The position numbers were made by a program, and so were the translations under genes. Source: a phage. From it: 64,000 nucleotides of DNA. Positions 4,376-61,310 of the stretch are shown here, one piece after another. The stretch's first letter is position 1. Each line of letters begins with the position of its first letter. Location: sequence record OZ346205.1, one strand, 5' to 3'. The notes beneath the pieces were generated by a model. It did not search any database. It was not told the origin of the DNA and worked only from the letters and a program-made list of their open reading frames with translations.

Positions 4376-6799
4376 ATGAGTATGTGGTCTTTCGATTTTG
4401 AGTCATCCGGTTTGCTGGAAGACCCAGATCTTTATTATCACTGCGGTCTGTTTAAAGAGCTGAATAAGAACCGTTTTATGCTGTTCCTTCCTCTAAATGA
4501 CCGCACACACTACTCCGAGGAGGATATAGAAAAGGCTAAGAACTTCATTCTGTCAAAGAAAACTCTTTATAAAGATTTTGAAGTTCGCATAGCAGATTTT
4601 TCGGAGTTGGAAGGTTGGCTTACAGGCAATTCTGACTGGTCACCAACAGCTTTGAACTGCCATAACTGCTACAGTTATGACTTTATGCTAATGGAAAGAT
4701 TATCCGGTATTCATTTTGATATGTTCCGTGATCCTAAATGCATGGGGACTATCAACGACCACCAGGTTAACCTGTTTGATACGTTGGCTATGAGCCGAAT
4801 CTTGTGGCCTGATCGCCCTTTACCAAAAGGTTGTCCGGACGCTGTATTCAACCCGGTTACTAAGAAAATGCAACCTGTTGGTCCTCACGGCCTTATGGCA
4901 TGGGGCTACGCCCTTGGTAACCAGAAAGTTCAAATTGATGACTGGCGCGATCTTCCGTTGTGGAAGTATGTGGATCGTGTATTCGAGGACGTTATCATCC
5001 AGGAGCTGCTCTGGAAAGAGCTGGTAGCGGAATCAAAAGGTGTATTCTACGGCAAATCTGACATGCAGAACTTTATGTACGATCCAGCCAAAGAGAAGCC
5101 GAAAGGGTTCAAGAAGATCACCTGGAAGAACGCATTACGTCGAGGCATGCTGCAGCACTTCCTGATGGAGCTGCAGGCCCGTCAGGGTGTATACTTCGAC
5201 ATAGATGGAGCTATTGCTTTACGTGACCGTTGCGATGCGTGGATGAAAGAAATCGCTGATCGTGTTGAACCACAACTACCTTTAAAAGAGCTGTCAATGT
5301 CTCAGCGGCCCAAGTTCCCTGAAAAGCCGTTTAACCAAGACGGGACAATCTCTAATAATGGTTGGAAATGGTTAAAAGATAAGCTTGGCTATCCTGTAGA
5401 CATGAGTGCTTTAGAGTTCAAAGCCCCGCCTAAGCGAGCATTTACCTCTACAGGAGATGTCAGCAAGATGGGGATAAAATGGTGTGAAGAGATGGGCTGC
5501 AAAGACCCCGATAAGATGGCTGATTTCTTGAGAGGCTATATTAAGGGCACCTCCACACCACAACCCTTACCTAAAGAGCTGATGGATCAGGCAATAAGTG
5601 ATCTGCAGCAGAAGCGAATGCCTGACTGCAAGATACCTATGAAAATCAGCAATCAGGACGACATCAAGCGATACCTAATCAGTGCTGGTTGGCTCCCAAC
5701 AATGTGGAGAACTAAAGATGTAACTAAAGACAGCAAGAAGAAAGCTTTACCTGATGCAGATGTTGATGCACGAGTATATGCATATATGGACGAGCTTTTG
5801 GAGTCAGAGTATTGTGACCTAATTATCAACTTCTGGAACAAAACTGATGCTAAGTTCCAGACAACCGTGCACAAGTTCCGAAGCTTTCCTAACTCCGAAA
5901 GGATTAAAAAGGAAGTATTCGGGAAAATACGTAGAAAAGCCAGGGCACTTATTACTTCTCCGCAACTGAAAGATACGTTTGGACACCTATGCCCAAATCT
6001 TGAAAAATTGAACGGAGAGATGGCTAAAGATATCGTCTTGTGGTTATCATTGCGAAACCGCAGATCGGTCCTTGATCCAATCAAGGAGGATAAGGTTGAT
6101 ACTGGTCTTCTTAATCACCCACGTTTGAAGATTGACCATAAGCTTCCTGCTAAAAGCTCTGGATTAACAAACACTTCCAGACAGAAACACAGTATTTGTG
6201 CAAACATGCCTAAACCATCTCCTAAAGTGGTTATGGGTAAAGAGATGCGTAGTCTGTGGGGTGTTCCTCCGGGATACTTTGAGATCGGTATTGACGGGTC
6301 CAACTTAGAGCAGCTTATCGGGGCTTGGGGTGCCTTTGAGTTCGACAACGGCCTGTATTATGATGTTGTAAGTAACGGAGACGCACACCAAAACAATGCT
6401 GAGGCATATACAAAAGTGGCAGGCAGAGAGGTGTCCCGTAACGACGGTAAACCTATCACGTATGGGGTTATGTACGGGGCACAAAAAGATAAAGTTGCAG
6501 ATATGTTGGACATCTCCCCAGAGTTGGGACAAAGGGTAATCGATGCACTCTGGGATGCCAACCCAGGTCTTAAGGGGCGCAAAGAGGATCTGGAGAAATT
6601 CTGGGAAGCAACAGGTAAGAAGTTTATCTACTCTTTTGATGGTCATGCTATCTGGACCCGATCTAAACACTCTTTACTTAATGCATACCAACAAAATGGC
6701 GGTGCATCGTTGTGTGACTTAGTTGGAATACTCATGCACCACCAGATGGTGAAGCGTGGGTGGTACGATGAAGGTGTTCGTCGTATTATTTATTACCAT
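4376..6799 (+). CDS. DNA polymerase, family A (Pol I-like), exon 1
   Basis: 3'-5' exo motif FDFESSG; motif A IDGSNLEQ; motif B R..GKPITYGVMYG; frame ends ...RRIIYYH just before motif C. Confidence 0.8.
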
Positions 6800-7075
6800 A
6801 AATAACATTGTGGCTTCATAGAGTAATCTATGTCGAATAACCTCTTTAACTGCGGGAAGCCTAAACCTTATGGCAAGGTAATCCGCAACGAAGCGCTCAA
6901 AAGAGCGAACGCTCAGAGGCCATTCCGAAAGGAAGTAGACCAGCAAGTGCGGTCGAAATGGGAGGATTCCTGTGGTTGCTTATCATAGGAATATGAGATG
7001 GTCCGATCCTACGTGAAAACGTATGGCTATGCACGTAATGGTGCGGGGTAGCTTAACGACCTACCTGAACTATTG
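6800..7075 (+). mobile_element. group I intron (no ORF) splitting DNA polymerase motif C
   Basis: P-like ACTGCGGGAAGCC (6848), Q-like AATCCGCAACG (6880), S-like GAGATGGTCCG (6995); follows exonic U, ends in G; exon junction YYH|DE restores motif C. Confidence 0.65.
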
Positions 7076-7429
7076 GATGAGTACCAACTTCAAGTGCCTG
7101 ACACACCGAAGTATAAGACTGTGTACACCTTCGACACAATTGAAGAACTGGAAGCATTTAAGGCAGAGCAGGAAGCCAAACTTCATGTGTTCGACGGTCA
7201 TAAGTACAAAAAGGCACGCAAGGATGAGGACGGAAACGAAGTGGTTGACAGAGACGGAAACACGGTGTACGATCCTATCCTGAACGATGACGGAAAGCTT
7301 GAACTTATCTGGAGCCCTGTGGGTGAAATGGTGGTACATTGCTTCTGGCAAGCTTCTAAAATGATGGGAGTCCCGTTCCAGATCACAGGTGAATACTTGT
7401 GTGGTCGTAATTGGGGTGATTGTCACTAA
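7076..7429 (+). CDS. DNA polymerase, family A, exon 2 (C-terminus)
   Basis: Begins DEYQ (motif C completion); ends ...GRNWGDCH like Pol I ...GENWDQAH. Confidence 0.7.
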   Translation, partial: DEYQLQVPDTPKYKTVYTFDTIEELEAFKAEQEAKLHVFDGHKYKKARKDEDGNEVVDRDGNTVYDPILNDDGKLELIWSPVGEMVVHCFWQASKMMGVPFQITGEYLCGRNWGDCH

Positions 7430-7478
7430 TGTAAACTATCAACACATGGAAGTGTTGTTGAGCAAAGAGGAGACTTTT

Positions 7479-7763
7479 ATGGTAGTAGAACCAACAAAAA
7501 CATTTACATCCATGACTATCCCTGTTATTATGCAGGTGGAGTGTGTTCAGGTATCTCAAGTGTGGCCTGGCACCAAAATCCCAACAGGGCCTGATTTCTT
7601 TCAGGTTGGGAAAGTGTACAATGTCTGGAAGGCACCAGATTGTTACCCTTTCATTAAAGATGACCGTGGGATGCTGTGGTATCTTGGAAATGACTTGACA
7701 CTGCACCTTGGGAATGCTATTATTGCAGTATTCAGACTTAACAAGAAGGAGACCGATCAATGA
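7479..7763 (+). CDS. hypothetical protein
   Basis: ORF 7389..7763; start moved to ATG 7479 with AAAGAGGAGA RBS, clear of polymerase end. Confidence 0.5.
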   Translation: MVVEPTKTFTSMTIPVIMQVECVQVSQVWPGTKIPTGPDFFQVGKVYNVWKAPDCYPFIKDDRGMLWYLGNDLTLHLGNAIIAVFRLNKKETDQ

Positions 7764-7987
7764 CGACTTTGGTTAAAGCCACCTTTGTAGAAGAAAAGAT
7801 GACAGACATGTCATTCTTTAAAGAAGGAAAGACCTACGAGGTTTATTACGATAAAGCTCGTGCAAACAAAATGATTAAAGACGAGGAAGGGGTTGACTGG
7901 TATATCTCTCACCTGGCAAACGGTGAGTATCATATCTACGGAACCACTTTGCTTGCCAAGTTTGTAGTTGTTGAAGAGGACCTATGA
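7760..7987 (+). CDS. hypothetical protein
   Basis: ATG overlaps upstream stop; AAGAAGGAGA RBS. Confidence 0.55.
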   Translation: MTTLVKATFVEEKMTDMSFFKEGKTYEVYYDKARANKMIKDEEGVDWYISHLANGEYHIYGTTLLAKFVVVEEDL

Positions 7988-8178
7988 AAGTAAAGTATCT
8001 TGCTGAAGGTATGAATAGGTATTTTACCCTTGGTGAAGAATATTGGCCCTTTACAAACAACGGCGATGTCTACGTGAAAGATAATTTCGGCACGCCGTGG
8101 TTTCTGCACTCTAATGGGCTGGGATACTCCATTTACTGCGGTGCAGTGAACAACACAACTCTTGCAGAGTTCGTTTAG
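7984..8178 (+). CDS. hypothetical protein
   Basis: Coupled start; GAAGAGGA RBS. Confidence 0.5.
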   Translation: MKVKYLAEGMNRYFTLGEEYWPFTNNGDVYVKDNFGTPWFLHSNGLGYSIYCGAVNNTTLAEFV

Positions 8179-8188
8179 AGGAGGTAGG

Positions 8189-8560
8189 ATGTTAGTAAAA
8201 GGTACCCACACAGTCAAACAACGTATTGAAGTTGAGATTGATGATTGTGAGCTGAAGCATATTTTACGGTCATGCTCCAACGTTTTGCTCCTTAGTATTC
8301 TTCAGGAGCGAGCGGAGAACGAGTTCTTAAATGCATTGGCAGGCCGTCCCGGTGACTTCTGTGTGCGTAAGCGTGGTGACAACAAGTCGTGGTTGTGGGA
8401 GATCGATGCCGACTGGGATTACCACAAAAATGAGGGTATAGATGAGCCTATTCGTGAACTGACGGACAAAGAGATTCAGATGTACAATGAAGTTTGTCAT
8501 TGGGCAACACGCCAACAAATTTACCTAGACCCTGTGTGGCTGATTGAAAATAGTCGTTGA
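8189..8560 (+). CDS. hypothetical protein
   Basis: ATG 8189 preceded by AGAGGAGG; track start 8162 is TTG. Confidence 0.55.
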   Translation: MLVKGTHTVKQRIEVEIDDCELKHILRSCSNVLLLSILQERAENEFLNALAGRPGDFCVRKRGDNKSWLWEIDADWDYHKNEGIDEPIRELTDKEIQMYNEVCHWATRQQIYLDPVWLIENSR

Positions 8561-8585
8561 CAAGAAGTAAGGTTAGATGTAAGAT
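8557..8585 (+). promoter_or_regulatory. sigma70-like promoter
   Basis: TTGACA - 17 nt - TAAGAT. Confidence 0.45.
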
Positions 8586-8636
8586 ACTCCTCACAAACAG
8601 AGTATTGATTGTTAAATAATTAAGGAGACCTCTAAG

Positions 8637-8891
8637 ATGAAAATCATGTTGAAACCAGAATGCGTTGCAAACGACCGAGCTTTTAAAGATTGCACACTTG
8701 GCGCTACTTATGAAGCAGAGTTTTGTGAGAACCCTTTGGTAAAAGCCCTTTTGGAAGAAGGGGCCCCTCTATCACAAGAAGAGCTTGATGAGCTGGAAAA
8801 CTCAGCACAGTGCCTTACCTTTAAAGATGATGAAGGAGACTCTGTCTGGTGCACTGTTAACGAAGTAGTTTTTGTAAAAACTGAACATTAA
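8637..8891 (+). CDS. hypothetical protein (paralogue of 8955..9215)
   Basis: AAGGAGA RBS; shares AF(K/R)DCT ... GD.V.CT pattern with next gene. Confidence 0.55.
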   Translation: MKIMLKPECVANDRAFKDCTLGATYEAEFCENPLVKALLEEGAPLSQEELDELENSAQCLTFKDDEGDSVWCTVNEVVFVKTEH

Positions 8892-8894
8892 TAC

Positions 8895-8923
8895 TTGACA
8901 ACAGCGATAGGACCTAATACAAT
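8895..8923 (+). promoter_or_regulatory. sigma70-like promoter
   Basis: TTGACA - 17 nt - TACAAT. Confidence 0.5.
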
Positions 8924-8954
8924 GGTCCTATCAAAACGAAAGGGGACCACAGCA

Positions 8955-9215
8955 ATGACCAAACAATATCAACGAATTAAAGCCAAGGTTAAGCCAGACT
9001 ATCTAGAGAAGGACTCTGCTTTTCGGGACTGCACAGCTGACAAAGTTTACACAGGGGCCGTCCTGTTGAACGATAAACTTGAAGTAGATGTGCTGGGTAA
9101 AGAGGCCGTTATCGAGGATGACAACGGTGACTGTGTTTTCTGCACCACACGAGAGCTAGAAGTCTTAGAATATTTCGGTGAAATCTTCAACTCCTTAGAC
9201 GACGAGGAAGCGTGA
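8955..9215 (+). CDS. hypothetical protein (paralogue of 8637..8891)
   Basis: ORF 8895..9215; start moved to ATG 8955 downstream of the promoter -10, AAAGGGGA RBS. Confidence 0.5.
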   Translation: MTKQYQRIKAKVKPDYLEKDSAFRDCTADKVYTGAVLLNDKLEVDVLGKEAVIEDDNGDCVFCTTRELEVLEYFGEIFNSLDDEEA

Positions 9216-9604
9216 TGAAAAATATTTGGGATATCGATATCTTTGAAGCCTCTAAGCTTGACGGTGCTGATGGAGTGATTATGGTGTCTGATGGCAAGGC
9301 AACACTAACTTCCGGAGATATCATCTATGCCTTGGACGAGCTGGCGCTTCTGAAATCTACCGGTAACACTTTGGAGGAGCGTCTTCAAGGATTCGCTTTC
9401 AAAGAAGGTACAAATACAGCCATGATGTGCACCACACGGACAGTCCAGGTTGGTAACGGTGTCTATATGATTATTGCTGTGTGTCCTAAATTCAGCAACG
9501 TCAACAAAGATGATGCTGACGCGGTCAACGATGTGGTTGTTCTCTTCGTGGGTGACGCTATGGCAGATCTGATGAATGCAGGAGAAGCAGCAAATGAAGA
9601 CTGA
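9215..9604 (+). CDS. hypothetical protein
   Basis: GAGGAAG RBS; ATG 9215. Confidence 0.5.
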   Translation: MKNIWDIDIFEASKLDGADGVIMVSDGKATLTSGDIIYALDELALLKSTGNTLEERLQGFAFKEGTNTAMMCTTRTVQVGNGVYMIIAVCPKFSNVNKDDADAVNDVVVLFVGDAMADLMNAGEAANED

Positions 9605-50424: not shown

Positions 50425-50714
50425 GACTTTTTAGTCTTTCTTGGAGAGCTTTTTGTTGATCTTTTCCTTTTGTGGTAGATTCCAAGTGCAGCGTTTTCTT
50501 GGGCGCACGTTTTAACAGTTCTCAGACAAGAGCTTTCAGCTTTAGGCAGGTTTAACTCCCACCAACCAAGCCAGTAAAGTTCTGATTCAGACAACTGCTC
50601 AGATTCAGCCTTCCGATACAAGGCTTGCATACCCCTGATGATATCGTCCAGAGGTGTATCGAATACAAAAGCTGTCTTATCGAATTTCTCTTTTACAGAT
50701 CTCTTAGCCATCAA
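50421..50714 (-). CDS. hypothetical basic protein
   Basis: ORF track. Confidence 0.45.
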   Translation of the reverse strand: MMAKRSVKEKFDKTAFVFDTPLDDIIRGMQALYRKAESEQLSESELYWLGWWELNLPKAESSCLRTVKTCAQENAALGIYHKRKRSTKSSPRKTKKS

Positions 50715-51168
50715 GGTAACCCTCTATCCACGAAAAGTCAGTCTTCCATTCTGGAACTTTACTAAGCTCGCGCCACTCTGCAAAGCAGTCTCGGTAATAC
50801 GCCTCTGCCATACCTCTGGTGATCTTATTCACCTTAGCCAACTGATTAACTGCCTGAGCATACTTTCCACGGATATTTGCTAATCCAGGATGTACCGATG
50901 TGTGACAATCTGGGCACAACGCTATCAGTCCGACAAGCCGGATCACTCCCTCTTCGAAAGTGTAAAGTTCATGACACTCCACTGGATGTTTGCTGCCTTT
51001 ACCGCCGCACACCTCGCAAGTGTAGTTTGCCTCTCTGTAGCACTTCTTACGGATCTTATCCCACTCACTCTTCTTCACAGCGTTTCGGAGGTTATTATAC
51101 CAAGCTGTTTCTGGGATCAGTTGCACAATAAGCCTGCGTTCAGACCTCATTAAACGTCCGTCTTCCAC
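50704..51168 (-). CDS. HNH-type endonuclease (putative free-standing homing endonuclease)
   Basis: CEVCGG...HPVECHE...CPDCH Zn-knuckle/His pattern. Confidence 0.4.
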   Translation of the reverse strand: MEDGRLMRSERRLIVQLIPETAWYNNLRNAVKKSEWDKIRKKCYREANYTCEVCGGKGSKHPVECHELYTFEEGVIRLVGLIALCPDCHTSVHPGLANIRGKYAQAVNQLAKVNKITRGMAEAYYRDCFAEWRELSKVPEWKTDFSWIEGYLDG

Positions 51169-51177
51169 GTATCCCCC

Positions 51178-51384
51178 TTATTCAAAGAAATGGGTGCGAG
51201 GGCAGGAACCTGCCTCGCCTTGTTTCACAAGCTCGTAGAGCTCACCTTGGCTTGTCTCATAAAGGCAAATACGTTTACCATTGTCCCGATACACATCGAC
51301 AAGATACGCTGTTTCACCTGCAAACACGACACCACAGGCCAGACATGCTGCCATGAACAAAATTGCCAACAGAAAATCTTTCAT
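51178..51384 (-). CDS. small lipoprotein-like secreted protein
   Basis: ORF 51178..51399; start at MKDF; signal peptide with Cys near cleavage region (AACLAC). Confidence 0.45.
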   Translation of the reverse strand: MKDFLLAILFMAACLACGVVFAGETAYLVDVYRDNGKRICLYETSQGELYELVKQGEAGSCPRTHFFE

Positions 51385-51447
51385 GGTTAAACACTCCATA
51401 ACATTTTATGAGGTAACAATACCACGTCCGTGTGGTTATGTCAATGA

Positions 51448-51918
51448 TCAATCCAGGACAATGCCGCCTGCCTTTTTAAACACCTCGATCAACTTCTCGA
51501 TCTTCTGTTCATGCTGACCATATCCAGCGCCGGGTAACGAAGCCCAGCGGGAACGGCATTTGCGGATAGCTTCGTGGATACGCCCTTCGTCAATGTCGGC
51601 GAGAGCCTTGCACTCACGGATCAGTTGCAACGCAATCTTGTCCTGACTGGCAGGGCCAAAATCTGGTAATCCTAGCTGTTTCATGTAGTGTTTAGCAAAC
51701 TTCTCCAAAACCTGGTAACGACCAGCAGCGGAGGAGGTAAGTTTAGCATTTAGCTTAACGTAAACACCTGGATGCTTGCTGTAATCGCTGAACAGCTTGC
51801 CGCCGACTATGACATCGTACCCCCGATCCTTGGTAGGTTGTCTACCATTATCTGTTCCTTCCGAATATGCGATCATATCCAAGAAAGCTTTTCGTTGAAC
51901 ATTTTTATCAAGTTTCAT
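51448..51918 (-). CDS. endolysin, lambda R-type lysozyme (lytic transglycosylase)
   Basis: QRKAFLDM..SEGTDNGRQ...GYDVIVGG...AGRYQ...WASLPGAGYGQ matches phage lambda R along its length; start moved to ATG 51918 (GGAGAG RBS). Confidence 0.85.
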   Translation of the reverse strand: MKLDKNVQRKAFLDMIAYSEGTDNGRQPTKDRGYDVIVGGKLFSDYSKHPGVYVKLNAKLTSSAAGRYQVLEKFAKHYMKQLGLPDFGPASQDKIALQLIRECKALADIDEGRIHEAIRKCRSRWASLPGAGYGQHEQKIEKLIEVFKKAGGIVLD

Positions 51919-52041
51919 TTTCATACTCTCCAGTTTGCTCATAACTAACCCGATCAACAACACTGCATAGTGTGGTTATGTAGGTGCCAATTGAAAAACC
52001 ATCATTCAATTGGCTACCGTTACCTACTAAACCATCCTACA

Positions 52042-53325
52042 TCATTCCAGAACCTCCCAAGTATCTGGGTTAACATTTCGGACGCAGATACCGACAGGGA
52101 ATTGGTAGTTGTTGTCTTCTGTCCTTGCTTGATATTTGAAGGTGACAAACTTGCCGATCATTTCCTGCATCCTGTCATAGCTACGCTCCTCGTGCGTGCC
52201 TTTCATCTTCATTTTAACAACAACACCTTCCTTGTCAACACAGATAAGAACACCTTCATCATTCTTATCTTTCTCAACGTCAATAACTTTCACCTCTGCG
52301 TCGTTGAACTTTTTCCATTTCAATGCTTCAGATGTTCGCTGACCATACTCATATTTACCACAGAAGTTACGCATAATGGTACCTTCATATCCTTCAGACA
52401 TAAATATACCAACAGACTCTTCGCACCGATCAACCGTATATGCAAGCTCTGCATCAACAACCTTAATATGATCAAGCATCAAAGAAGTAATAGCACCGTT
52501 TGCCTCCATAAGATCCTTACAGCGACCAGACTCTGTTTCAGGATCCCACCACACCTTATCGCTAGGAATATCGAAAATATGATACTCTAAGTCGTAGCTG
52601 CAGTACCCTTCGTAACGCAAATCATCACGAACAGGCTCAACATCAACAGGAATGTCCACCTTGTTGAAGTTTTTGTATGTTGCTAAACCTGCTTTAATCG
52701 CAGCCTGACGGCGTTTTTTATCTGCCTTGTAGTCTTTATCGATCTCGGCCTGAATTTCTTCCTGTGTGCGCCACCGTTTAGCAAGAGACACTATTTTCTG
52801 CAGAGGTAGACCATGAATATAGAGCTCTCCGTCGAGCTGTTTAATCCCGGTGGTTAGGTGGAAAGAGCGAAGTTGCTCCAGAAGCTTTCCTTGAATAGGG
52901 TAGGACTTATTACCACGGGAAATAAATTTAGGCTCACCATTCTGGAAAACAACAAGTAGACGAAGGCCATCTAACTTACGCAAGATCCAGCAAGGTAATT
53001 TAAGTGCCTTGCCACGCTTCAGGTAGTCATGCACCAACATGGGTAAAAGATCAACACCTTGCTCACAATCTTCCATACTCTCCACGTACCCGAGTCGGAC
53101 CTGTTTTTCCCACTTACTGATCGCTTCCAGCTCGGCCTGTTGCTCAGCTGTAGTTTCATTGGCGCGACCCACGTTCTTAGGTGTGCAGATCGTCTCTTTG
53201 TATTGCAGTTTACCATCAAGCTTGCCAAACTCTACGATAACCTTATCACCATCCGTGAATACTTTCCACTGTTGGTAGCTGCCATCTTTGTTCAGTGCGT
53301 ACAGTGTTGTTTTGATTTGATGCAT
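52042..53325 (-). CDS. ATP-dependent DNA ligase
   Basis: Motif I KLDGLR, motif IV SEGYEGTIMR, motif V ALKWKK. Confidence 0.7.
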   Translation of the reverse strand: MHQIKTTLYALNKDGSYQQWKVFTDGDKVIVEFGKLDGKLQYKETICTPKNVGRANETTAEQQAELEAISKWEKQVRLGYVESMEDCEQGVDLLPMLVHDYLKRGKALKLPCWILRKLDGLRLLVVFQNGEPKFISRGNKSYPIQGKLLEQLRSFHLTTGIKQLDGELYIHGLPLQKIVSLAKRWRTQEEIQAEIDKDYKADKKRRQAAIKAGLATYKNFNKVDIPVDVEPVRDDLRYEGYCSYDLEYHIFDIPSDKVWWDPETESGRCKDLMEANGAITSLMLDHIKVVDAELAYTVDRCEESVGIFMSEGYEGTIMRNFCGKYEYGQRTSEALKWKKFNDAEVKVIDVEKDKNDEGVLICVDKEGVVVKMKMKGTHEERSYDRMQEMIGKFVTFKYQARTEDNNYQFPVGICVRNVNPDTWEVLE

Positions 53326-53889: not shown

Positions 53890-53952
53890 AACTATCTGCC
53901 TCACTTGCATACTTTCCACAACAAGTAAAGCCGGGTAATCCCGGCCATGTTG

Positions 53953-54666
53953 TTAAATATACTCTGCTACATCCTTGAAGCTCGAAGGCTTCATGATCTT
54001 ACCTTTACTGTCAAGGAATATGATAACTTTATTACCGTTGTAGAATTCTTCCTTAGCAACAAAACCTTCATATCGACCATCAAAGCGTCGCTCAAGATCT
54101 TTAATCTCCAACTCTATGAGTTGTTCAGCAGGCATATCTGCACTGGCACCGTGTGAATACCGTAGATGGTTGACCCGTGCAAACTTGCTGTCATTCGATT
54201 TGAGAACCTTACGCATCATCCCGCACACATCGCCGCGAAGCTGGAACAGCAAAGCTGTTGACAACTCCGCTAAACGGTAAGCTGACGCTCTTTGCTTGGA
54301 TGTGTTTTTCGCAGCGATCAGTGTGTCATAGAACTCACCGATCTTGAACTTAAGACCTCGTGGATTATCAAACAGGTTTGACCACTTTTCGTGATTGTCA
54401 TTAACAAGATAAGCTGCATAACTTGTGACAACGTGAAGATCGCAGGCCTCCTTTAGCAGGTGATCTCCACCATCACCTTTCTCCAGCTCTTCCAAAACTT
54501 CATTGAACTCTTCCTCAATGAAGCTAAGCTGTAATTCGAATGGTGTGTATGATTTTTTCACTTTAGCTGCCACACGGTTCCAGTTTTCCACCCAGTTGGC
54601 AGACCAAAGGTAGTTTTCAGGTTGGGATAGTTTTTCCAGGTTGTCAATTAATTTAGTATTCAGCAT
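53953..54666 (-). CDS. MazG-like NTP pyrophosphohydrolase domain protein
   Basis: EEEFNEVLEELEKGDGGDHLLKEACDL resembles the MazG E..E..E...E.GD...E metal-binding helix. Confidence 0.4.
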   Translation of the reverse strand: MLNTKLIDNLEKLSQPENYLWSANWVENWNRVAAKVKKSYTPFELQLSFIEEEFNEVLEELEKGDGGDHLLKEACDLHVVTSYAAYLVNDNHEKWSNLFDNPRGLKFKIGEFYDTLIAAKNTSKQRASAYRLAELSTALLFQLRGDVCGMMRKVLKSNDSKFARVNHLRYSHGASADMPAEQLIELEIKDLERRFDGRYEGFVAKEEFYNGNKVIIFLDSKGKIMKPSSFKDVAEYI

Positions 54667-54679
54667 TAAAGGTCTCCTT

Positions 54680-55441
54680 TTAAAGTTCCATAAAGTTTTC
54701 TACAGTCTCAATGAATGTTTTATCAGAGAAGGCATCAACCGCACCGTTAAACCAAACTGGGATGCCACGATCCTCATACTGGTAAATATCACTACGTGAA
54801 ATGCCATTCTCCTCTAGATGCTGTGAGTCGTATTTATTAACGATCAGTAGTTTGGTTCCCTTATTGCAGGCAGGGAATAGCTCCCAGTTAAAATTGATAA
54901 CTGTGTTGGAGCACCCTACAAGGATAACCATATCATTGCTCGTAAGAGAAGTCAACAGGTCATACATGTCTGTATACTTCGGAGCTACTTCTCCGAAGAA
55001 CACCACATTAGGCTTAACCCAGGTATACTTTCCTGCGTCTACCTCAGAGTATCCAATGTCCTTAATGACGTCACTTCCTTCATCGTCCTCATAGACTATT
55101 TCTGGCAAATACCCGTGGACATGTAAAATATCTTCATGTTTTACACCAGCACGCTCCAGCAAATCATCTACATTGGTGGTAAGGTTGATCACACGACCAG
55201 ACCAGCGGGAATACCACTCAGCGATCCGAAGATGTGCAAGGTTAGGCTCAACACTGCCTAAAGCTACACGACGTGCATTGTAAAAGTCATGCACCTTATA
55301 GTAGTTCTTGGCAAAGGTGTGGATGTTGCACACCTCATCGATGCTGAAATTCTCCCACATTGCAGTGCTACCAGATCGGAAAGTGGGAATACCAGATTCA
55401 GCGCTCAAACCAGCACCGGAGATAATAATCAGTCGTCGCAT
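54680..55441 (-). CDS. Sir2-family NAD-dependent protein (sirtuin-like)
   Basis: GAGLSAESGIPTFR, TTNVDDL, catalytic HG (LHVHGY), FFGE; no Zn-ribbon cysteines. Confidence 0.7.
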   Translation of the reverse strand: MRRLIIISGAGLSAESGIPTFRSGSTAMWENFSIDEVCNIHTFAKNYYKVHDFYNARRVALGSVEPNLAHLRIAEWYSRWSGRVINLTTNVDDLLERAGVKHEDILHVHGYLPEIVYEDDEGSDVIKDIGYSEVDAGKYTWVKPNVVFFGEVAPKYTDMYDLLTSLTSNDMVILVGCSNTVINFNWELFPACNKGTKLLIVNKYDSQHLEENGISRSDIYQYEDRGIPVWFNGAVDAFSDKTFIETVENFMEL

Positions 55442-55449
55442 AAGTGTCC

Positions 55450-55800
55450 TCAGTAGATGTTTTGTTTAATCTCTATTCCAAACTTTTTAAACGAGTCAGC
55501 TGCAAGCATGAATTTACGAGCCGCTGATGGGTTAGAAGTATGCACGAAAATCTTCACGTTGTCAACTACAGGAGGCTTACCAAATACAAATTTTTCCTCC
55601 AACATAGATAGGCAATCGTACCCTTCGAATACCTCTCCAAGGTCGTTGTCCATATGCCACTCAGAAACGCGTCTGTAGAGCTTTCTATTATCGTTAATAA
55701 AATCTATAAACTCGGAGGAATTCTTTAGCCAAACAGCGTCTTGGAGCCCGTACTTTGACGGATCTCTCAAGTCATCTAGCCACACAATCAACTTCTTCAT
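55450..55800 (-). CDS. hypothetical protein
   Basis: ORF track, 116 aa; coupled to flanking genes, no recognisable motif. Confidence 0.5.
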   Translation of the reverse strand: MKKLIVWLDDLRDPSKYGLQDAVWLKNSSEFIDFINDNRKLYRRVSEWHMDNDLGEVFEGYDCLSMLEEKFVFGKPPVVDNVKIFVHTSNPSAARKFMLAADSFKKFGIEIKQNIY

Positions 55801-56732
55801 TGCATATAGTTCTCGTTGTGGAAATAGTAATCGAGTATCTCACGGCGTTCCTGCTCCAGGAGGCAGTTCCATACATCCTCTGTGTAGTTGTTACGAATGA
55901 AGTTTACCATGCCGTAAAACTCTTCGTCAACACGTTTAAAGATATCATCATCCCAAATCTTCCAAGCTTTACCCCTCATTACGGCCTTCCGTGCCAGATA
56001 GTATGGAGACTTAATCTTCAGCTGCAGATCATAAGGGTAGTAAGGCTTACGAATCATATACCCTTCACCTCTTGTTTCTGCAGCTAATTCTTTTGCATAA
56101 CTGAACGGAATTTCACGCACAGTGTGAGGACGTTTTGCACCAAGGTATTTGGCAATCCCATCTAAAGCTGCTTCTGGTAGCATTATTCCAGAATCATTAT
56201 ATCTGCAACCTATCAAATATGCGCCACGATCTTCCTGAACAATATGCGGATCTGAGGGGTGACAAATTTCAAACATGAATGTCATATTTTCATTGCCCAT
56301 AACCTTCTTGATAAGATCTAAATTACCACATTGCTCCTGGATGGTTTCCTTTGCAAGGTTACAATATGGAGAATCAAGAGACCCGGTTGTTGAGAACAAT
56401 AGTTCACCTTTATGAGATGACACCACACCAAGGAATCCGTTCTTTTTCTCTACCGCCGTCACAAGCTTATTGTCAGGCAGGTTGGTGGAGTTTTCTCCCA
56501 AGTTAAACACTTTTGTAAAGGGCCATGCCACAACATTTCCTTCATTACCGACAACAATGCCTCGGCACTCCAGTAATCGAGGAGACAAATGCCATAAGTT
56601 GTTGTAGAATACTTTTCTGGCATATTTATAGATCTTTAACCCAAGGTCTGGGTGATATCTGCTGGTTACAAGACCTTTGTCAACTAGGTCGTCTGCATTA
56701 AAATACTTCATCATACGTTCCTCATTTGTCAT
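55797..56732 (-). CDS. RNA ligase (nucleotidyltransferase; Rnl-like)
   Basis: Motif I EKKNG, motif IV GEGYMIRK, motif V LQLKIK; a separate DNA ligase exists; flanked by kinase/phosphatase genes. Confidence 0.55.
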   Translation of the reverse strand: MTNEERMMKYFNADDLVDKGLVTSRYHPDLGLKIYKYARKVFYNNLWHLSPRLLECRGIVVGNEGNVVAWPFTKVFNLGENSTNLPDNKLVTAVEKKNGFLGVVSSHKGELLFSTTGSLDSPYCNLAKETIQEQCGNLDLIKKVMGNENMTFMFEICHPSDPHIVQEDRGAYLIGCRYNDSGIMLPEAALDGIAKYLGAKRPHTVREIPFSYAKELAAETRGEGYMIRKPYYPYDLQLKIKSPYYLARKAVMRGKAWKIWDDDIFKRVDEEFYGMVNFIRNNYTEDVWNCLLEQERREILDYYFHNENYMQ

Positions 56733-56775
56733 TTTGTCAGTCTATCCTGCCACACAAATAACCTAGTGTCAACAC

Positions 56776-56804
56776 TTGAAATTAACAAAACAGTTAGGTA
56801 TACT
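56776..56804 (+). promoter_or_regulatory. sigma70-like promoter in divergent region
   Basis: TTGAAA - 17 nt - TATACT. Confidence 0.5.
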
Positions 56805-56832
56805 ATCGTTGAAATTAAAACGGAGGATTACT

Positions 56833-57243
56833 ATGTCTAAAATGCTATATATCGTGCGTGGTCTACCAGGGTCTGGCAAATCAACACTGGCAAGTGCGCT
56901 ATCTTTAGAAGGTCTGTATCCACATTTTGAGAACGACATGTTCTGGTACGACGATGATGGAAATTACAACTGGGATGCAAGTAAAGTAACACTTGCAGCA
57001 AAATGGTGCAAAGATAACGTAGAAGATATGATGCGTATGGGATACGACCGTATCGTGGTAAGTAATACATTTACAAAAGAAAAATATGTGCAAGAATATA
57101 TTGACATGGCGATCAGTCATGGGTATAGTTATACCGTAATCGTGGTTGAAAACCGCCATGGTAGTAAAAGCATTCATGATGTTCCAGACAGGGTTGTGGA
57201 TCGTATGGAACGCCAGCTTAAAAACTGCATTAAACTTAAATGA
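56833..57243 (+). CDS. polynucleotide 5'-kinase (P-loop, Pnk-like)
   Basis: ORF 56776..57243; ATG 56833 after ACGGAGG; P-loop GLPGSGKST. Confidence 0.6.
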   Translation: MSKMLYIVRGLPGSGKSTLASALSLEGLYPHFENDMFWYDDDGNYNWDASKVTLAAKWCKDNVEDMMRMGYDRIVVSNTFTKEKYVQEYIDMAISHGYSYTVIVVENRHGSKSIHDVPDRVVDRMERQLKNCIKLK

Positions 57244-57250
57244 GGAATGT

Positions 57251-57805
57251 ATGAAATACTTTGTAACAAGCGACACACACTTTCTCCACCAGCGGGTCAT
57301 GGAGTTTGACTCATGTCAAAAACACAGATCTCAGTATGATCACAATCTTGACAGTATGAATGCGGGGATCATCACCAAGTGGAACTCTGTTGTGTCACCT
57401 GCAGACACTGTGTTTCACTTAGGAGATATTGCGTGCACTAATGATAAGAATATTAACAAATTGCTCCCAGATGTTCTAAATATGTTGAACGGACATATTA
57501 TTCTTGTTCGTGGTAACCATGACACAAGGACGACTGTCAGAATTATGAAAGAGTTCGGTCATGAGGTTGTAGATTATTACGAGCTTCGCCACAACAAGAA
57601 TTTGATCTGTATGAGCCATTACCAGTTTGCAAAGTGGAACAGAAAGCCTCACGGATCGGTCCAACTGTTCGGTCATGCTCACGGAACCACACAGCAGTTG
57701 TTTGGCAGGCAGTTTGATGTCGGTTGGGATGTGTGGGGGAGACTCTTACCATTAGAAGAGGCATACCGTATTGCAATGAGTCTTGCTATTGACAGCGTGG
57801 AGTAA
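57251..57805 (+). CDS. calcineurin-like metallophosphoesterase
   Basis: ORF 57146..57805; ATG 57251 after GAGGAA; motifs DTHF, GDIA, GNHD, GHAH. Confidence 0.65.
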   Translation: MKYFVTSDTHFLHQRVMEFDSCQKHRSQYDHNLDSMNAGIITKWNSVVSPADTVFHLGDIACTNDKNINKLLPDVLNMLNGHIILVRGNHDTRTTVRIMKEFGHEVVDYYELRHNKNLICMSHYQFAKWNRKPHGSVQLFGHAHGTTQQLFGRQFDVGWDVWGRLLPLEEAYRIAMSLAIDSVE

Positions 57806-57852
57806 TCCCTGCTATTTTAAAGAAAATTGCCACACAAGGAGAATCAGGAGAT

Positions 57853-58203
57853 ATGAAAGATGGGGATAAGCTGCTATATCTTAAAGTCCCCCTTGAAATA
57901 CTGTCTATGTCAAAAGTTTTGAATGACACAACTGGTGAGGTTGTTGTTCTTGACTTATATGACAAGATCGTATACTGCTACCTGCACAACTGGTATAAGC
58001 TTGGAGGAAATTCACGCTTCACGCCCAGCACAAGGAAAATTGCAGCAGATATTGGGATAAAGAAAACAAAAGCAGCAGCGTGCGTTAAAACTTTAGAATG
58101 TGCAGGAGTGGTTGAAATATCCACGCAAGGGAGAGGTAAAAGATGCACATTTTCCAAAGTTTTGCCACCAGAAGAAGTTATTCGAATGTCAACAACTGGT
58201 TAG
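57853..58203 (+). CDS. putative winged-helix DNA-binding protein
   Basis: HTH-like STRKIAADIGIKKTKAAACVKTLE; immediately upstream of a palindromic iteron array. Confidence 0.4.
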   Translation: MKDGDKLLYLKVPLEILSMSKVLNDTTGEVVVLDLYDKIVYCYLHNWYKLGGNSRFTPSTRKIAADIGIKKTKAAACVKTLECAGVVEISTQGRGKRCTFSKVLPPEEVIRMSTTG

Positions 58204-58277
58204 ACCAGTAAAAACTTAAATATCTGTACTATAAGGATTCGTATGTTTTATGTTCACTCTGGAACAGAGGTTAGTAA

Positions 58278-58360
58278 CTGTCCGTGATACGGACACTACT
58301 GTCCGTCACGCGGACACATCTGTCCGTAATACGGACACTAACTGTCCGTGATACGGACAC
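58278..58360. repeat. iteron array: 4 tandem palindromes TGTCCGT-N5-ACGGACA
   Basis: Copies start at 58278, 58299, 58320, 58342 (21-22 bp period); followed by an A/T-rich stretch and further inverted repeats to about 58470. Confidence 0.8.
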
Positions 58361-61211: not shown

Positions 61212-61310
61212 GCTAGGTAAGCCCTTTGGCAAGGGCGAGGATTTTTAATCCTGAAAATAGACGAGGTAGTCGTTGAATACATAGGTGGTTCGATTCCATC
61301 ACCTAGCACC
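61212..61310 (+). tRNA. atypical tRNA-like gene (99 nt; anticodon loop TTTTTAA, UUU?)
   Basis: Acceptor GCTAGGT/ACCTAGC, D-arm GCCC...GGGC, T-arm GGTGG-TTCGATT-CCATC, but 30-nt extra region and imperfect anticodon stem. Confidence 0.4.

Follow-up and report, generated by a model that had tools for sequence, protein, structure and literature searches.

Anticodon nucleases and RNase toxins leave 2',3'-cyclic phosphate and 5'-OH ends on their targets, and tRNA repair by T4 Pnkp and Rnl1 counters one of these enzymes, the anticodon nuclease PrrC. Once a cyclic phosphate has been opened, CthPnkp- and lambda-phosphatase-type metallophosphoesterases can remove the phosphate that remains. Sirtuin chemistry parallels that of Tpt1, in that a nucleophile attacks C1'' and a His-activated ribose hydroxyl attacks next. 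For Tpt1, PMC6573784 and PMC11417386 describe an attack of the phosphate on C1'' of NAD+ followed by an attack of O2'' on the phosphate, and also a terminal 2'/3'-phosphomonoesterase activity. The opening of 2',3'-cyclic phosphates by CthPnkp/lambda-phosphatase-type metallophosphoesterases is described in PMC2190708. A purely computational study (Iyer et al. 2022, PMC9503650) described a phage gene neighbourhood with a sirtuin, proposed to remove RNA 2'-phosphates in the manner of KptA/Tpt1, and named 'Escherichia phage V5' as a prototype. Section 3.7.3 of that study contains the exact neighbourhood considered here, which overturns the original prediction that it had not been described as a unit. 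The cluster is thus already known as a prediction, whose NAD-linked step is inferred in the literature as we infer it here; our literature search found no experimental paper on the phage sirtuin or on cREC. To the published account we add residue-level checks, structure models, gene-order variation and counter-examples. These results cut both ways, supporting the KptA-like proposal in part and weakening it in part.

Composition and layout of the locus

The window, a stretch of 64,000 nucleotides (sequence record OZ346205.1), comes from an rV5-like Vequintavirus with 99.7% identity to rV5_ev147 and slur16. A minus-strand operon of four genes, encoding an Rnl1-type RNA ligase, cREC, a sirtuin and a MazG-like protein, lies divergent to a plus-strand pair encoding a Pnk-like kinase and a calcineurin-like phosphoesterase. 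The operon is tight: the cREC and ligase genes overlap by 4 nt, the remaining gaps are 8 and 13 nt, and ribosome-binding sites are present. Catalytic motifs are intact in all proteins of the cluster. The five ORFs of the original prediction and their coordinates were confirmed, and Pfam bore out the Sir2, ligase, kinase and phosphatase families; the MazG-like gene, part of the published neighbourhood, had been overlooked. Starts of the ligase, kinase and phosphoesterase were revised on the basis of the sequence and of GenBank annotation.

The ligase (55797..56714, minus strand, 305 aa) is an ATP-dependent, T4 RnlA-like member of the Rnl1 family, matching PF09511 RNA_lig_T4_1 with E 4e-15 in Pfam. 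Its start is probably ATG 56714, where there is a GAGGA ribosome-binding site; the upstream ATG 56732 would give 311 aa. Motifs I (K96-x-N-G), IV (E223-G-Y) and V (K239-I-K241), in long-ORF numbering, show no variation. T4 Rnl1 is the only PDB match of the family profile (2c5u, 9do4; E 1e-8), and the ligase resembles it rather than the fungal 2'-phosphate-requiring ligases. It is not a DNA-ligase paralogue. The 116-aa protein, previously regarded as unexplained, falls into the named Pfam family cREC (cyclic-phosphate-processing receiver domain; 55450..55800, minus strand; PF20274 cREC_REC, E 4.5e-15), and has a receiver fold with a conserved acidic pocket.

The sirtuin (54680..55441, minus strand, 253 aa) matches PF02146 with E 3e-27 and PHROG 2162 with E 9e-110, and represents a clade of the Sir2 family that appears to be restricted to phages. 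Its residues 9-22 read GAGLSAESGIPTFR, and HG occupies residues 109-110. The NAD-binding and catalytic residues are retained, being invariant across 18 homologues: G9-A-G11, S16-G17, F21-R22, Y54/R57, N90/D92, H109-G110 and N202. F148, F149 and E151 of the FFGE motif are likewise invariant, with variation at G150. The class III Y-x-x-R pair and the peptide-binding FGE loop are retained; there is no CxxC pair, and none of the four cysteines that bind zinc in canonical deacylases is present. With a pI of 4.8 and a net charge of -15, the protein is strongly acidic; the median pI of the family is 5.2. In an AF2 model (pLDDT 80), the nearest fold is E. coli CobB, followed by SIRT5.

The MazG-like gene (53953..54666, 237 aa), the last of the minus-strand set, matches PHROG 671 'nucleotide pyrophosphohydrolase' with E 5e-22 and has no match in Pfam. 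A weak match of its family profile to HisE (1yvw, E 0.035) spans the invariant E52-E53-x-x-E56...D76, and the product is predicted to be an all-alpha NTP pyrophosphohydrolase-like protein. Directly 3' of the gene, a consensus scan found a GC-rich, terminator-like hairpin (53929..53946, minus strand; 7-bp stem, 6 GC pairs, weak T-run), a pattern match that probably marks the end of a transcriptional sub-unit.

The ligase and kinase operons are separated by 118 nt (56715..56832), where GC skew flips sign and where the consensus scan predicts a sigma-70-like site, TTGAAA-17-TATACT, at 56776-56804 on the plus strand, upstream of the kinase. The kinase (56833..57243, plus strand, 136 aa) is a small P-loop protein of the polynucleotide 5'-kinase type, matching AAA_33 with E 2e-10 in Pfam and most likely starting at ATG 56833 rather than TTG 56776. 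In the PDB, its profile best matches three RNA-repair polynucleotide kinases: Capnocytophaga Pnkp1, CthPnkp (kinase domain) and T4 Pnk. No variation is seen in the P-loop G10-x-x-G-x-G-K16-S17 or at D35. The latter falls opposite the first D of the Pnkp1 (4xrp) RDD motif in the alignment, a position that we take to be that of the general-base Asp35 of T4 Pnk. The phosphoesterase (57251..57805, plus strand, 184 aa; PF00149/PF12850) matches Metallophos with E 1e-5 in Pfam and PHROG 547 with E 2e-50; its start is most likely ATG 57251 rather than 57146. The nearest solved structure is aq_1665 (1xm7, E 1e-10), and all five motifs are present (D8-x-H10, G58-D59, G88-N-H-D, H123, G141-H-x-H144). Seven phage tRNAs, among them tRNA-Lys(UUU) and tRNA-Tyr(GUA), are encoded 3 kb downstream of the cluster.

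Conservation and distribution of the cluster

In 122 phage records the 4.4-kb stretch of the cluster is matched at 90% identity or more. Eleven divergent viral contigs carry the gene families in another arrangement, all on a single strand, MPE-Rnl1-(cREC)-Kin-Sir2-...-MazG (MPE, metallophosphoesterase), with proteins about 45-60% identical and the MazG-like protein about 30%. Since these contigs hold the families clustered in another order, the linkage outlasts rearrangement, and the arrangement is not due to chance. Every one of the 12 related viral loci that bear the repair genes also has the MazG-like gene in its cluster; cREC is absent within 8 kb in three of the 11 full clusters.

The sirtuin clade also extends beyond the cluster: it occurs in 982 phage records, cREC in 345. 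T5-like phages account for 29 of the 54 viral sirtuin loci, and in none of these 29 was an Rnl1-type ligase found within 8 kb; organism counts suggest that T5-like genomes are without the ligase altogether. In 28 T5-like loci, T5 included, the sirtuin has a HAD-type RNA-repair phosphatase, HAD_SAK_2 ('Swiss Army Knife RNA repair'), about 1 kb away at most, and in a 607-kb jumbo phage Rnl1 is two genes away from a 42%-identical sirtuin. One Stephanstirmvirinae phage has its sirtuin 30 kb away from a cREC-MPE-DNA ligase-MazG cluster, within 5 kb of which no RNA ligase or kinase was found. Pakpunavirus (Pseudomonas) and Vibrio phages carry the Rnl1-kinase-phosphoesterase trio without sirtuin or cREC.

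A candidate tRNA-repair module and its rivals

The Rnl1 profile match, the RNA-repair enzymes matched by the kinase and the complete phosphoesterase motifs uphold the suggestion of a T4-like healing-and-sealing set, and the trio quite likely forms such a set. The whole neighbourhood is best explained as a sirtuin-linked, tRNA-repairing counter-defence module of rV5-like phages, a reading to which we give an even chance. What the analysis establishes is each protein's fold and family, the intact motifs, the close gene spacing and the conserved linkage; every substrate, the order of steps and, above all, the role of the sirtuin we infer. The module would most likely repair tRNAs cleaved by host anticodon nucleases or RNase toxins, both those of the host and the seven of the phage. 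The kinase would phosphorylate the 5'-OH, and the metallophosphoesterase, cREC or both would open the 2',3'-cyclic phosphate. The leftover 2'- or 3'-phosphate might then be removed hydrolytically by the metallophosphoesterase, or else by the sirtuin. For by-product disposal, cREC would open a cyclic phosphate and the MazG-like enzyme would cleave a pyrophosphate, and the Rnl1-type ligase would finally seal 3'-OH and 5'-phosphate ends. The sirtuin is not strictly needed in this scheme, because metallophosphoesterases of this type can open 2',3'-cyclic phosphates themselves. Any participation of the sirtuin in RNA-end processing falls somewhat short of an even chance, and its acting specifically by Tpt1-like phosphate transfer is rather doubtful.

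The links of the sirtuin clade to HAD_SAK_2 and to the jumbo-phage Rnl1 are independent and count for the module, as do the operon layout, the conserved clustering, the parallel with Tpt1 chemistry, the nearby tRNA genes and the T4 precedent against PrrC. Counted against it are a sirtuin clade found in far more phage records than cREC, the separate sirtuin of the Stephanstirmvirinae phage, trios without sirtuin, clusters without nearby cREC and a ligase that is Rnl1-like rather than 2'-phosphate-requiring. The sirtuin may instead be an ordinary CobB/SIRT5-like lysine deacylase (deacetylase or desuccinylase) acting on host or phage proteins during takeover, its adjacency to RNA repair being synteny inherited within an early/auxiliary-gene region. 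Several further points against the module favour this alternative: the nearest relatives by sequence and fold are the deacylases CobB (27% identity) and SIRT5, the only NCBIfam matches are deacylase models, the catalytic His, FGE loop and acidic-acyl-binding Y-x-x-R pair are kept, an acidic enzyme suits basic protein substrates, and the ligase linkage is lost in T5-like and Stephanstirmvirinae phages. However, the scores fall far below every CobB equivalog cut-off (103 against 320 bits, for example), the zinc-binding cysteines are missing, the sirtuin has neither an acyltransferase nor an evident protein target linked to it, and its apparently phage-restricted clade recurs near RNA-end enzymes of unrelated folds (Rnl1/cREC, HAD_SAK, jumbo-phage Rnl1). 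We consider a deacylase unlikely.

The sirtuin, cREC and MazG-like protein, perhaps with the phosphoesterase, could also form an NAD+/ADP-ribose counter-defence unit acting on small molecules rather than RNA ends, with the repair trio as an anti-defence unit in its own right on one shared island. Envisaged substrates are cyclic ADPR signals, ADPR-1''-phosphate and NAD+ breakdown products of Thoeris, SIR2, TIR or RES defences. In PaP1, Thalassa and JSF12 the trio directly adjoins Prs-like, Nampt-like and 'phosphatase' genes, which correspond to NARP1 with its Adpp phosphatase (characterised in bioRxiv 10.64898/2026.01.28.702374), and an NAD module beside the trio is therefore a recurrent pattern. 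The Stephanstirmvirinae cREC-MPE-MazG genes also adjoin a Prs-like gene, one cellular cREC adjoins a WYL regulator, and the study that defined the often Nudix-fused cREC family proposed that it processes cADPR or cyclic nucleotides (PMC7824862). Yet adjacency may merely mirror the clustering of anti-defence genes, a sirtuin, which uses up NAD+, would be of no help against immunity that depletes NAD+ and would even work against the phage, the annotation of a complete rV5-like genome includes no Adps or Namat homologue, and the cREC/ligase overlap suggests co-translation with RNA repair. Such a unit seems improbable.

It is quite improbable that the sirtuin is an ADP-ribosyltransferase leaving a stable mark, whether capping RNA 5'- or 3'-phosphate ends against nucleases, as Tpt1 and some PARPs can, or modifying a host protein such as a nuclease or translation factor. 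Such activity is known from other sirtuins (among them the macro-linked class that PMC9503650 cites), and the intact NAD-binding residues and the linkage to RNA-end enzymes agree with it; an eraser of the macro, ARG or NADAR type is neither linked to the sirtuin nor annotated in the genome, and the invariant His for the second, ribose-hydroxyl step fits turnover better than a dead-end adduct. An NADase for host shut-off or a toxin like defence-type SIR2 effectors would agree with the fold and intact NAD pocket but is very improbable, given no significant match to PADLOC defence SIR2 models, fold neighbours that are deacylases rather than ThsA- or DSR-type enzymes, a small single-domain protein without a sensor domain and no annotated NAD+ salvage pathway in the rV5-like genome to protect the phage.

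Comparison with known systems

The preferred repair module resembles T4 Pnkp and Rnl1 in its Rnl1-family nucleotidyl-transferase motifs, in the 5'-kinase P-loop with a general-base Asp at its presumed position and, presumably, in healing 2',3'-cyclic phosphate and 5'-OH ends before sealing them. It differs in that the 3'-healing enzyme is a separate metallophosphoesterase, whereas that of T4 is a kinase-fused HAD domain; the ligase has 305 rather than 374 aa and scores 38 bits against the T4 RnlA equivalog cut-off of 242, and the T4 genes are not linked to a sirtuin, cREC or MazG-like gene. With Clostridium thermocellum Pnkp, whose kinase domain is matched by the kinase profile, the cluster shares a Pnk-type kinase and a binuclear metallophosphoesterase as 3'-healing enzyme; it has three separate proteins instead of one polypeptide, a ligase of the Rnl1 rather than the CthPnkp family, and no Hen1 methyltransferase. 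The Trl1-Tpt1-Cpd1-Poa1p pathway of fungal and plant tRNA splicing shows no sequence or fold kinship: the Tpt1 fold stands against the Rossmann-type Sir2 fold and the 2H fold against the receiver fold of cREC, and the ligase profile detects no similarity to Trl1-type ligases.

NARP1 and NARP1-AP (Adps, Namat, Adpp) are likewise centred on NAD/ADPR and, in the three phages above, adjoin the trio; Adpp is a homologue of a tRNA-splicing by-product phosphatase (bioRxiv 10.64898/2026.01.28.702374). NARP1 rebuilds NAD+, whereas the sirtuin consumes it, and the window, like a complete rV5-like genome, carries no annotated Adps or Namat homologue. The closest counterpart is configuration 2 of PMC9503650 (Iyer, Burroughs, Anantharaman & Aravind 2022, Viruses 14:1977), which comprises a viral-clade sirtuin, T4-like tRNA ligase, cREC, nucleotide kinase, MazG-superfamily pyrophosphatase and calcineurin-like phosphoesterase: this gene set is identical to that of the cluster described here, with no substantive difference between the two.

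Gene layout and its variants

All six genes of the published type-2 neighbourhood, as assigned by Pfam and PHROG, sit within 53953-57805. Four are encoded on the minus strand: an RNA ligase with a longest open reading frame of 55797-56732 (PF09511, E 4e-15), the 116-aa cREC protein, a cyclic-phosphate-processing receiver domain, at 55450-55800 (PF20274 cREC_REC, E 4.5e-15), the sirtuin at 54680-55441 (PF02146, E 3e-27), and a MazG-like protein of 237 aa at 53953-54666 (PHROG 671, 'nucleotide pyrophosphohydrolase'). The plus strand carries a P-loop kinase, from an ATG at 56833 to 57243 (AAA_33, E 2e-10), and a calcineurin-like phosphoesterase, from an ATG at 57251 to 57805, also recognised by Pfam. 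The five open reading frames named in the original prediction are all present and belong to the Pfam families assigned to them, with small corrections to their coordinates; the gene set was one short, as the MazG-like gene had been overlooked. The minus-strand genes are tightly spaced, with a 4-nt overlap between ligase and cREC and gaps of 8 and 13 nt at the remaining junctions, and a terminator-like hairpin at 53929-53946 closes the set. The ligase, sirtuin and MazG-like genes each have a ribosome-binding site; cREC has none, and its start overlaps the stop of the ligase gene. For the ligase, ATG 56714 is the most likely start, preceded by a GAGGA site. The divergent intergenic region measures 118 nt and coincides with a switch in GC skew. 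It separates a leftward module of replication and nucleotide metabolism from rightward genes leading to the seven-tRNA cluster and the structural module.

The window comes from an rV5-like Vequintavirus. Its stretch 53900-58300 shares 99.7% identity with Escherichia phages rV5_ev147 and slur16, and 122 phage records match it at 90% identity or more. Approximately 18-25 GenBank records (MG0656xx) labelled as Campylobacter jejuni phages (C11, C2, A13b, D1, A142 and others) also match it, and are 93-100% identical to E. coli rV5-like phages across this stretch; host mislabelling or contamination seems likely. Four tandem repeats of 21-22 bp, each with the palindrome TGTCCGT-N4-ACGGACA, occupy 58275-58360, about 70 bp downstream of an HTH gene at 57853-58203 (PHROG 'replication initiation protein', Pfam HTH_36/DUF6945), and look like a putative operator or iteron array for its product. 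The intervals 50704-51168 and 51178-51963 correspond to an HNH-type endonuclease ORF near the endolysin gene. In the related phage RudolfGeigy, whose rV5-like genome is complete, the 50704-51963 spot has a second homing-endonuclease gene that is missing from the window, which is ordinary mobile-endonuclease variation.

Scanning IMG/VR with an alignment of the sirtuin yielded 54 loci, which fall into four groups. Twelve of them hold repair genes and come from phages of 135-150 kb, including Mydovirus-like and Erwinia Hena1-like phages. In one of the twelve, the truncated contig L026, only the kinase, sirtuin, DNA ligase and MazG-like genes are present; another (L002) is a near-identical rV5-like phage with the divergent arrangement of the window. 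The ten complete loci that remain, all more divergent, have the genes on a single strand, in the order phosphoesterase-ligase-(cREC)-kinase-sirtuin-DNA ligase-...-MazG. The occurrence of the same families in a different order indicates that their linkage survives rearrangement, and the neighbourhood singled out in the original prediction is thus kept, reordered, in divergent loci. In three of the complete repair-gene loci cREC is absent within 8 kb. The largest group, 29 loci, is T5-like and lacks a ligase, kinase or cREC in the vicinity; 28 of its members have, no more than about 1 kb from the sirtuin, a gene for a HAD_SAK_2 'Swiss Army Knife RNA repair' phosphatase, the pair being represented in T5 by genes T5.102 and T5.105. 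Eleven loci, from phi92-like and other phages, show no recognisable partner beside the sirtuin, and the sirtuin neighbours in phi92-like and other 140-150-kb phages are mostly without a Pfam match. The last two loci belong to jumbo phages, and the 607-kb one has an Rnl1 gene two genes away from a 42%-identical sirtuin. Of 50,697 phage records, 982 have the sirtuin clade, 781 the ligase clade and 345 cREC.

In one Stephanstirmvirinae genome, Klebsiella phage phi1_175008 (L061), a cluster at 4998-9597, next to a PRPP-synthetase-like gene, comprises cREC, phosphoesterase, ATP-dependent DNA ligase and MazG-like genes; neither an RNA ligase nor a kinase occurs within 5 kb of it, and the sirtuin is at a distance of 30 kb. 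A DNA ligase also adjoins the cluster in the window, at 52042-53325, and its presence in both genomes suggests that the 'module' may owe some of its linkage to synteny inherited around this gene.

The kinase-phosphoesterase-ligase trio

The ligase scores 56.6 bits against PF09511 (cut-off 28.3), and its motifs I (K96-K-N-G), IV (E223-G-Y) and V (K239-I-K) are aligned and invariant, K96 belonging to the adenylylated-lysine motif. A profile is needed to place it structurally, as a single-sequence search of the PDB gives no match. The profile of the seven-member ligase family matches T4 Rnl1 alone (E 1e-8) and none of the fungal Trl1-type ligases in the PDB, even up to E 10, and thus lends no support to a ligase leaving a 2'-phosphate junction. 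The ligase differs from T4 RnlA in scoring 38 bits against the equivalog TIGR02308 (cut-off 242) and in its length of 305-311 aa against 374 aa, the alignment stopping at T4 residue 296; by score, length and alignment end, it does not reach equivalog-level identity with T4 RnlA, C-terminal tRNA-specificity domain included. The kinase likewise calls for a profile, its single-sequence search of the PDB giving a marginal P-loop match (1zp6, E 0.086). The top PDB matches of the kinase profile are polynucleotide kinases of RNA repair, Pnkp1 (4xrp), the CthPnkp kinase (4gp6) and T4 Pnk (1ly1), with modest E values of 2e-6 to 1e-5. The kinase residues checked, the P-loop G10-L-P-G-S-G-K16-S17 and D35, are invariant, and D35 aligns with the first D of the Pnkp1 RDD motif, which we take to be the general-base position of T4 Pnk. 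On these similarities the kinase is predicted to be of the polynucleotide 5'-kinase type (T4 Pnk/CthPnk clade); the 2022 description of the neighbourhood (PMC9503650) terms it just 'a nucleotide kinase'. The phosphoesterase scores 26 bits against PF00149 (cut-off 21.5) and carries all five binuclear-metal motifs: D8-T-H10, G58-D59, G88-N-H-D91, H123 and G141-H-A-H144.

The trio is the conserved functional core of the cluster. Judging by family membership and homology to T4 Pnkp/Rnl1 and CthPnkp, it probably heals and seals RNAs that metal-independent nucleases have cut, and the same homology supports the initial reading of the three genes as a healing-and-sealing set. The trio lies 3 kb from phage tRNA genes, including tRNA-Lys(UUU) and tRNA-Tyr(GUA), and this proximity agrees with a tRNA-centred counter-defence role. 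Only tRNAs are found by Rfam in 58.2-61.7 kb. One of the seven phage tRNAs, tRNA-Lys(UUU) at 61212-61308 (+), is enlarged to 97-99 nt by about 26 extra nucleotides in its variable region. ARAGORN wrongly gives it a four-base anticodon, and its alignment to the Rfam tRNA model scores 35.5 bits and shows the anticodon loop UUUUUAA. The idea that this odd tRNA (99 nt) contains an intron requiring the ligase was rejected, because the extra 26 nt fall within the variable region and outside the anticodon loop. The anticodon nuclease PrrC classically targets tRNA-Lys(UUU), and this atypical copy beside a tRNA-repair module may therefore be a nuclease-resistant replacement.

The sirtuin and the accessory layer

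The sirtuin, cREC and MazG-like genes are a lineage-specific accessory layer. The sirtuin scores 96.2 bits against PF02146 (cut-off 24) and retains all its NAD-binding and catalytic residues: G9-A-G-L-S13 (GAGxS), F21-R22, N90/D92 and H109 are invariant in 18 homologues, and the FFGE motif and N202 are kept too, with G150 of FFGE varying in two of the 18. H109 aligns with the histidine of the SIRT5 'EIHG' motif, presumably His158. Y54 and R57 (Y-x-x-R), also invariant, align with Y and R in SIRT5 'FYHYRR', which we take to be Tyr102 and Arg105, the pair that binds acidic acyl groups. The four-cysteine zinc ribbon is missing: C38, C177 and C192 are the sole cysteines and form no CxxC pair, and the 38-residue H109-F148 segment holds no cysteine in the sirtuin or in any homologue compared. 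The small-domain module is a low-confidence hairpin in the predicted model (pLDDT 80), whose nearest fold is E. coli CobB (27% identity), followed by SIRT5; its best 50 Foldseek matches are all sirtuin deacylases, namely CobB, SIRT5 and archaeal or Thermotoga Sir2 homologues. The protein is strongly acidic. It falls far under the CobB equivalog cut-off (NF040867, 103.5 bits against 320), and its best NCBIfam match, the subfamily-type deacylase model NF001753, reaches 122.7 bits against a cut-off of 243.

The cREC protein matches PF20274 over threshold and has a receiver fold in which acidic residues are conserved at the active-site positions of receivers; a five-sequence cREC profile yielded nothing useful in the PDB. 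The domain was defined in a 2021 jumbo-phage paper (PMC7824862) by the authors of PMC9503650, and hydrolysis of 2',3'- or 1'',2''-cyclic phosphates is predicted for it in both. Cellular cREC, as found by scanning genome contigs with the five-sequence alignment, is limited to two loci, both in Christiangramia; the gene is linked to a WYL regulator, and neither locus has a linked ligase. On the Christiangramia sediminis chromosome (L063, 3863-4351) cREC is flanked by genes for an AAA ATPase and a WYL-WCX transcription factor, and a DUF2779 protein is encoded upstream. The MazG-like protein has no Pfam MazG match. It matches the C-terminal part of the PHROG 671 profile (E 5e-22), and a profile of its own family weakly matches HisE (E 0.035) across the invariant E52-E53-x-x-E56...D76.

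Sirtuins react in two steps, the attack of a nucleophile on C1'' being followed by that of a ribose hydroxyl activated by His. In Tpt1 (PMC6573784 and PMC11417386) an RNA phosphate attacks C1'' of NAD+, and O2'' of the ADP-ribose then attacks the phosphate. The parallel between the two chemistries makes attractive the KptA-like model of PMC9503650, in which the sirtuin removes 2'-phosphates coming from 2',3'-cyclic ends and its partner enzymes would have one of two tasks, opening the cyclic phosphate or dealing with the ADP-ribose cyclic phosphate that results. Pfam shows no Tpt1/KptA (ART-superfamily) domain in any of the cluster's proteins, and any resemblance to Tpt1/KptA would be one of function only. 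Some Tpt1 enzymes strip terminal 2'- and 3'-phosphates with NAD+ (PMC6573784), and such removal would suit a T4-like ligase, which requires clean 2'-OH/3'-OH ends. The Y-x-x-R pair could bind phosphate as readily as carboxylate, and the MazG-like protein here and a Nudix protein in the jumbo-phage variant could both cleave the ADP-ribose by-product; both points fit the model and neither proves it. Against it stand the protein deacylases as closest relatives of the sirtuin, the retained peptide-binding FGE loop, the acidity of the protein, its frequent separation from phage RNA ligases, and the ability the phosphoesterase could have to finish 3'-end healing alone. Phosphoesterases of the CthPnkp and lambda-phosphatase type can remove the phosphate after opening a cyclic phosphate. 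Their cyclic phosphodiesterase activity is described in PMC2190708.

Weighing these points, we hold an involvement of the sirtuin in RNA-end processing to be a serious though tentative possibility, and the specific Tpt1-like reaction to be doubtful. The deacylase relatives and the FGE loop fit a plain protein deacylase, and the deacylase equivalog and subfamily cut-offs are missed by a wide margin; this reading is somewhat less probable again. A place for the sirtuin within an NAD/ADPR small-molecule counter-defence unit would find parallels in other phages, and no NAD+ salvage, Tpt1, macro or 2H genes are annotated elsewhere in the complete rV5-like genome; we consider it improbable. Chemistry ending in a stable ADP-ribosyl mark is more improbable still. 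An NADase is highly implausible: none of the defence-type SIR2 models of PADLOC (ThsA, DSR, SIR2-HerA and others) matches the sirtuin, its sole PADLOC match being to an unrelated model (13.6 bits, E 0.0076). A sirtuin working in reverse, making NAD+ from ADPR-1''-phosphate and nicotinamide, was rejected on thermodynamic reasoning, NAD+ phosphorolysis being the favourable direction.

Known status and relation to NAD+ modules

The proposal that these genes had not been described as a unit does not hold, since both the gene set and the hypothesis were printed in 2022: PMC9503650 names phage V5 as a prototype of the sirtuin-ligase-cREC-kinase-MazG neighbourhood, with or without the calcineurin-like phosphoesterase. 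Full-text literature searches found no experimental work on the sirtuin clade, cREC or rV5 RNA repair. Because the cluster resides in easily handled E. coli phages (BASEL Vequintavirinae), the published hypothesis is directly testable. If true, it would make this sirtuin the first with a demonstrated action on nucleic-acid ends and a fold-independent analogue of Tpt1, and cREC a new class of cyclic phosphodiesterase built on the receiver fold. Phages would then be spending NAD+ to mend tRNAs that host immunity has damaged, and tRNA cleavage and NAD+ depletion, the two main battlegrounds of phage defence, would be connected.

Pseudomonas Pakpunavirus and Vibrio phages likewise carry a ligase-kinase-phosphoesterase trio of these families, there unaccompanied by sirtuin or cREC. 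In Pseudomonas phage PaP1 (L065) and Vibrio phages Thalassa (L066) and JSF12 (L069) it directly adjoins PRPP-synthetase-like, Nampt-like and 'phosphatase' genes; these three loci derive from two unrelated phage families. The adjoining genes correspond to the NAD+ reconstitution pathway NARP1 with the Adpp phosphatase (NARP1-AP), characterised in bioRxiv 10.64898/2026.01.28.702374; a text search of this aRES/NARP1-AP preprint for 'RNA ligase' found no mention of the adjacency. Vibrio phage K408 has the trio and no NARP1-type genes, and neither Adps (PRPP-synthetase-like) nor Namat (Nampt-like) is annotated in RudolfGeigy. The rV5-like Sir2-cREC-MazG set might conceivably be a stand-in for NARP1-AP, that is, a new NAD+/ADP-ribose-centred counter-defence pathway whose substrates would be ADPR-phosphate or cyclic-ADPR species, whether or not it is tied to RNA repair, and not a mere remover of 2'-phosphates; we give this little credence. 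The recurrent pairing of the trio with NAD+-centred modules, Sir2/cREC/MazG in one case and NARP1-AP in the other, may deserve a systematic look.
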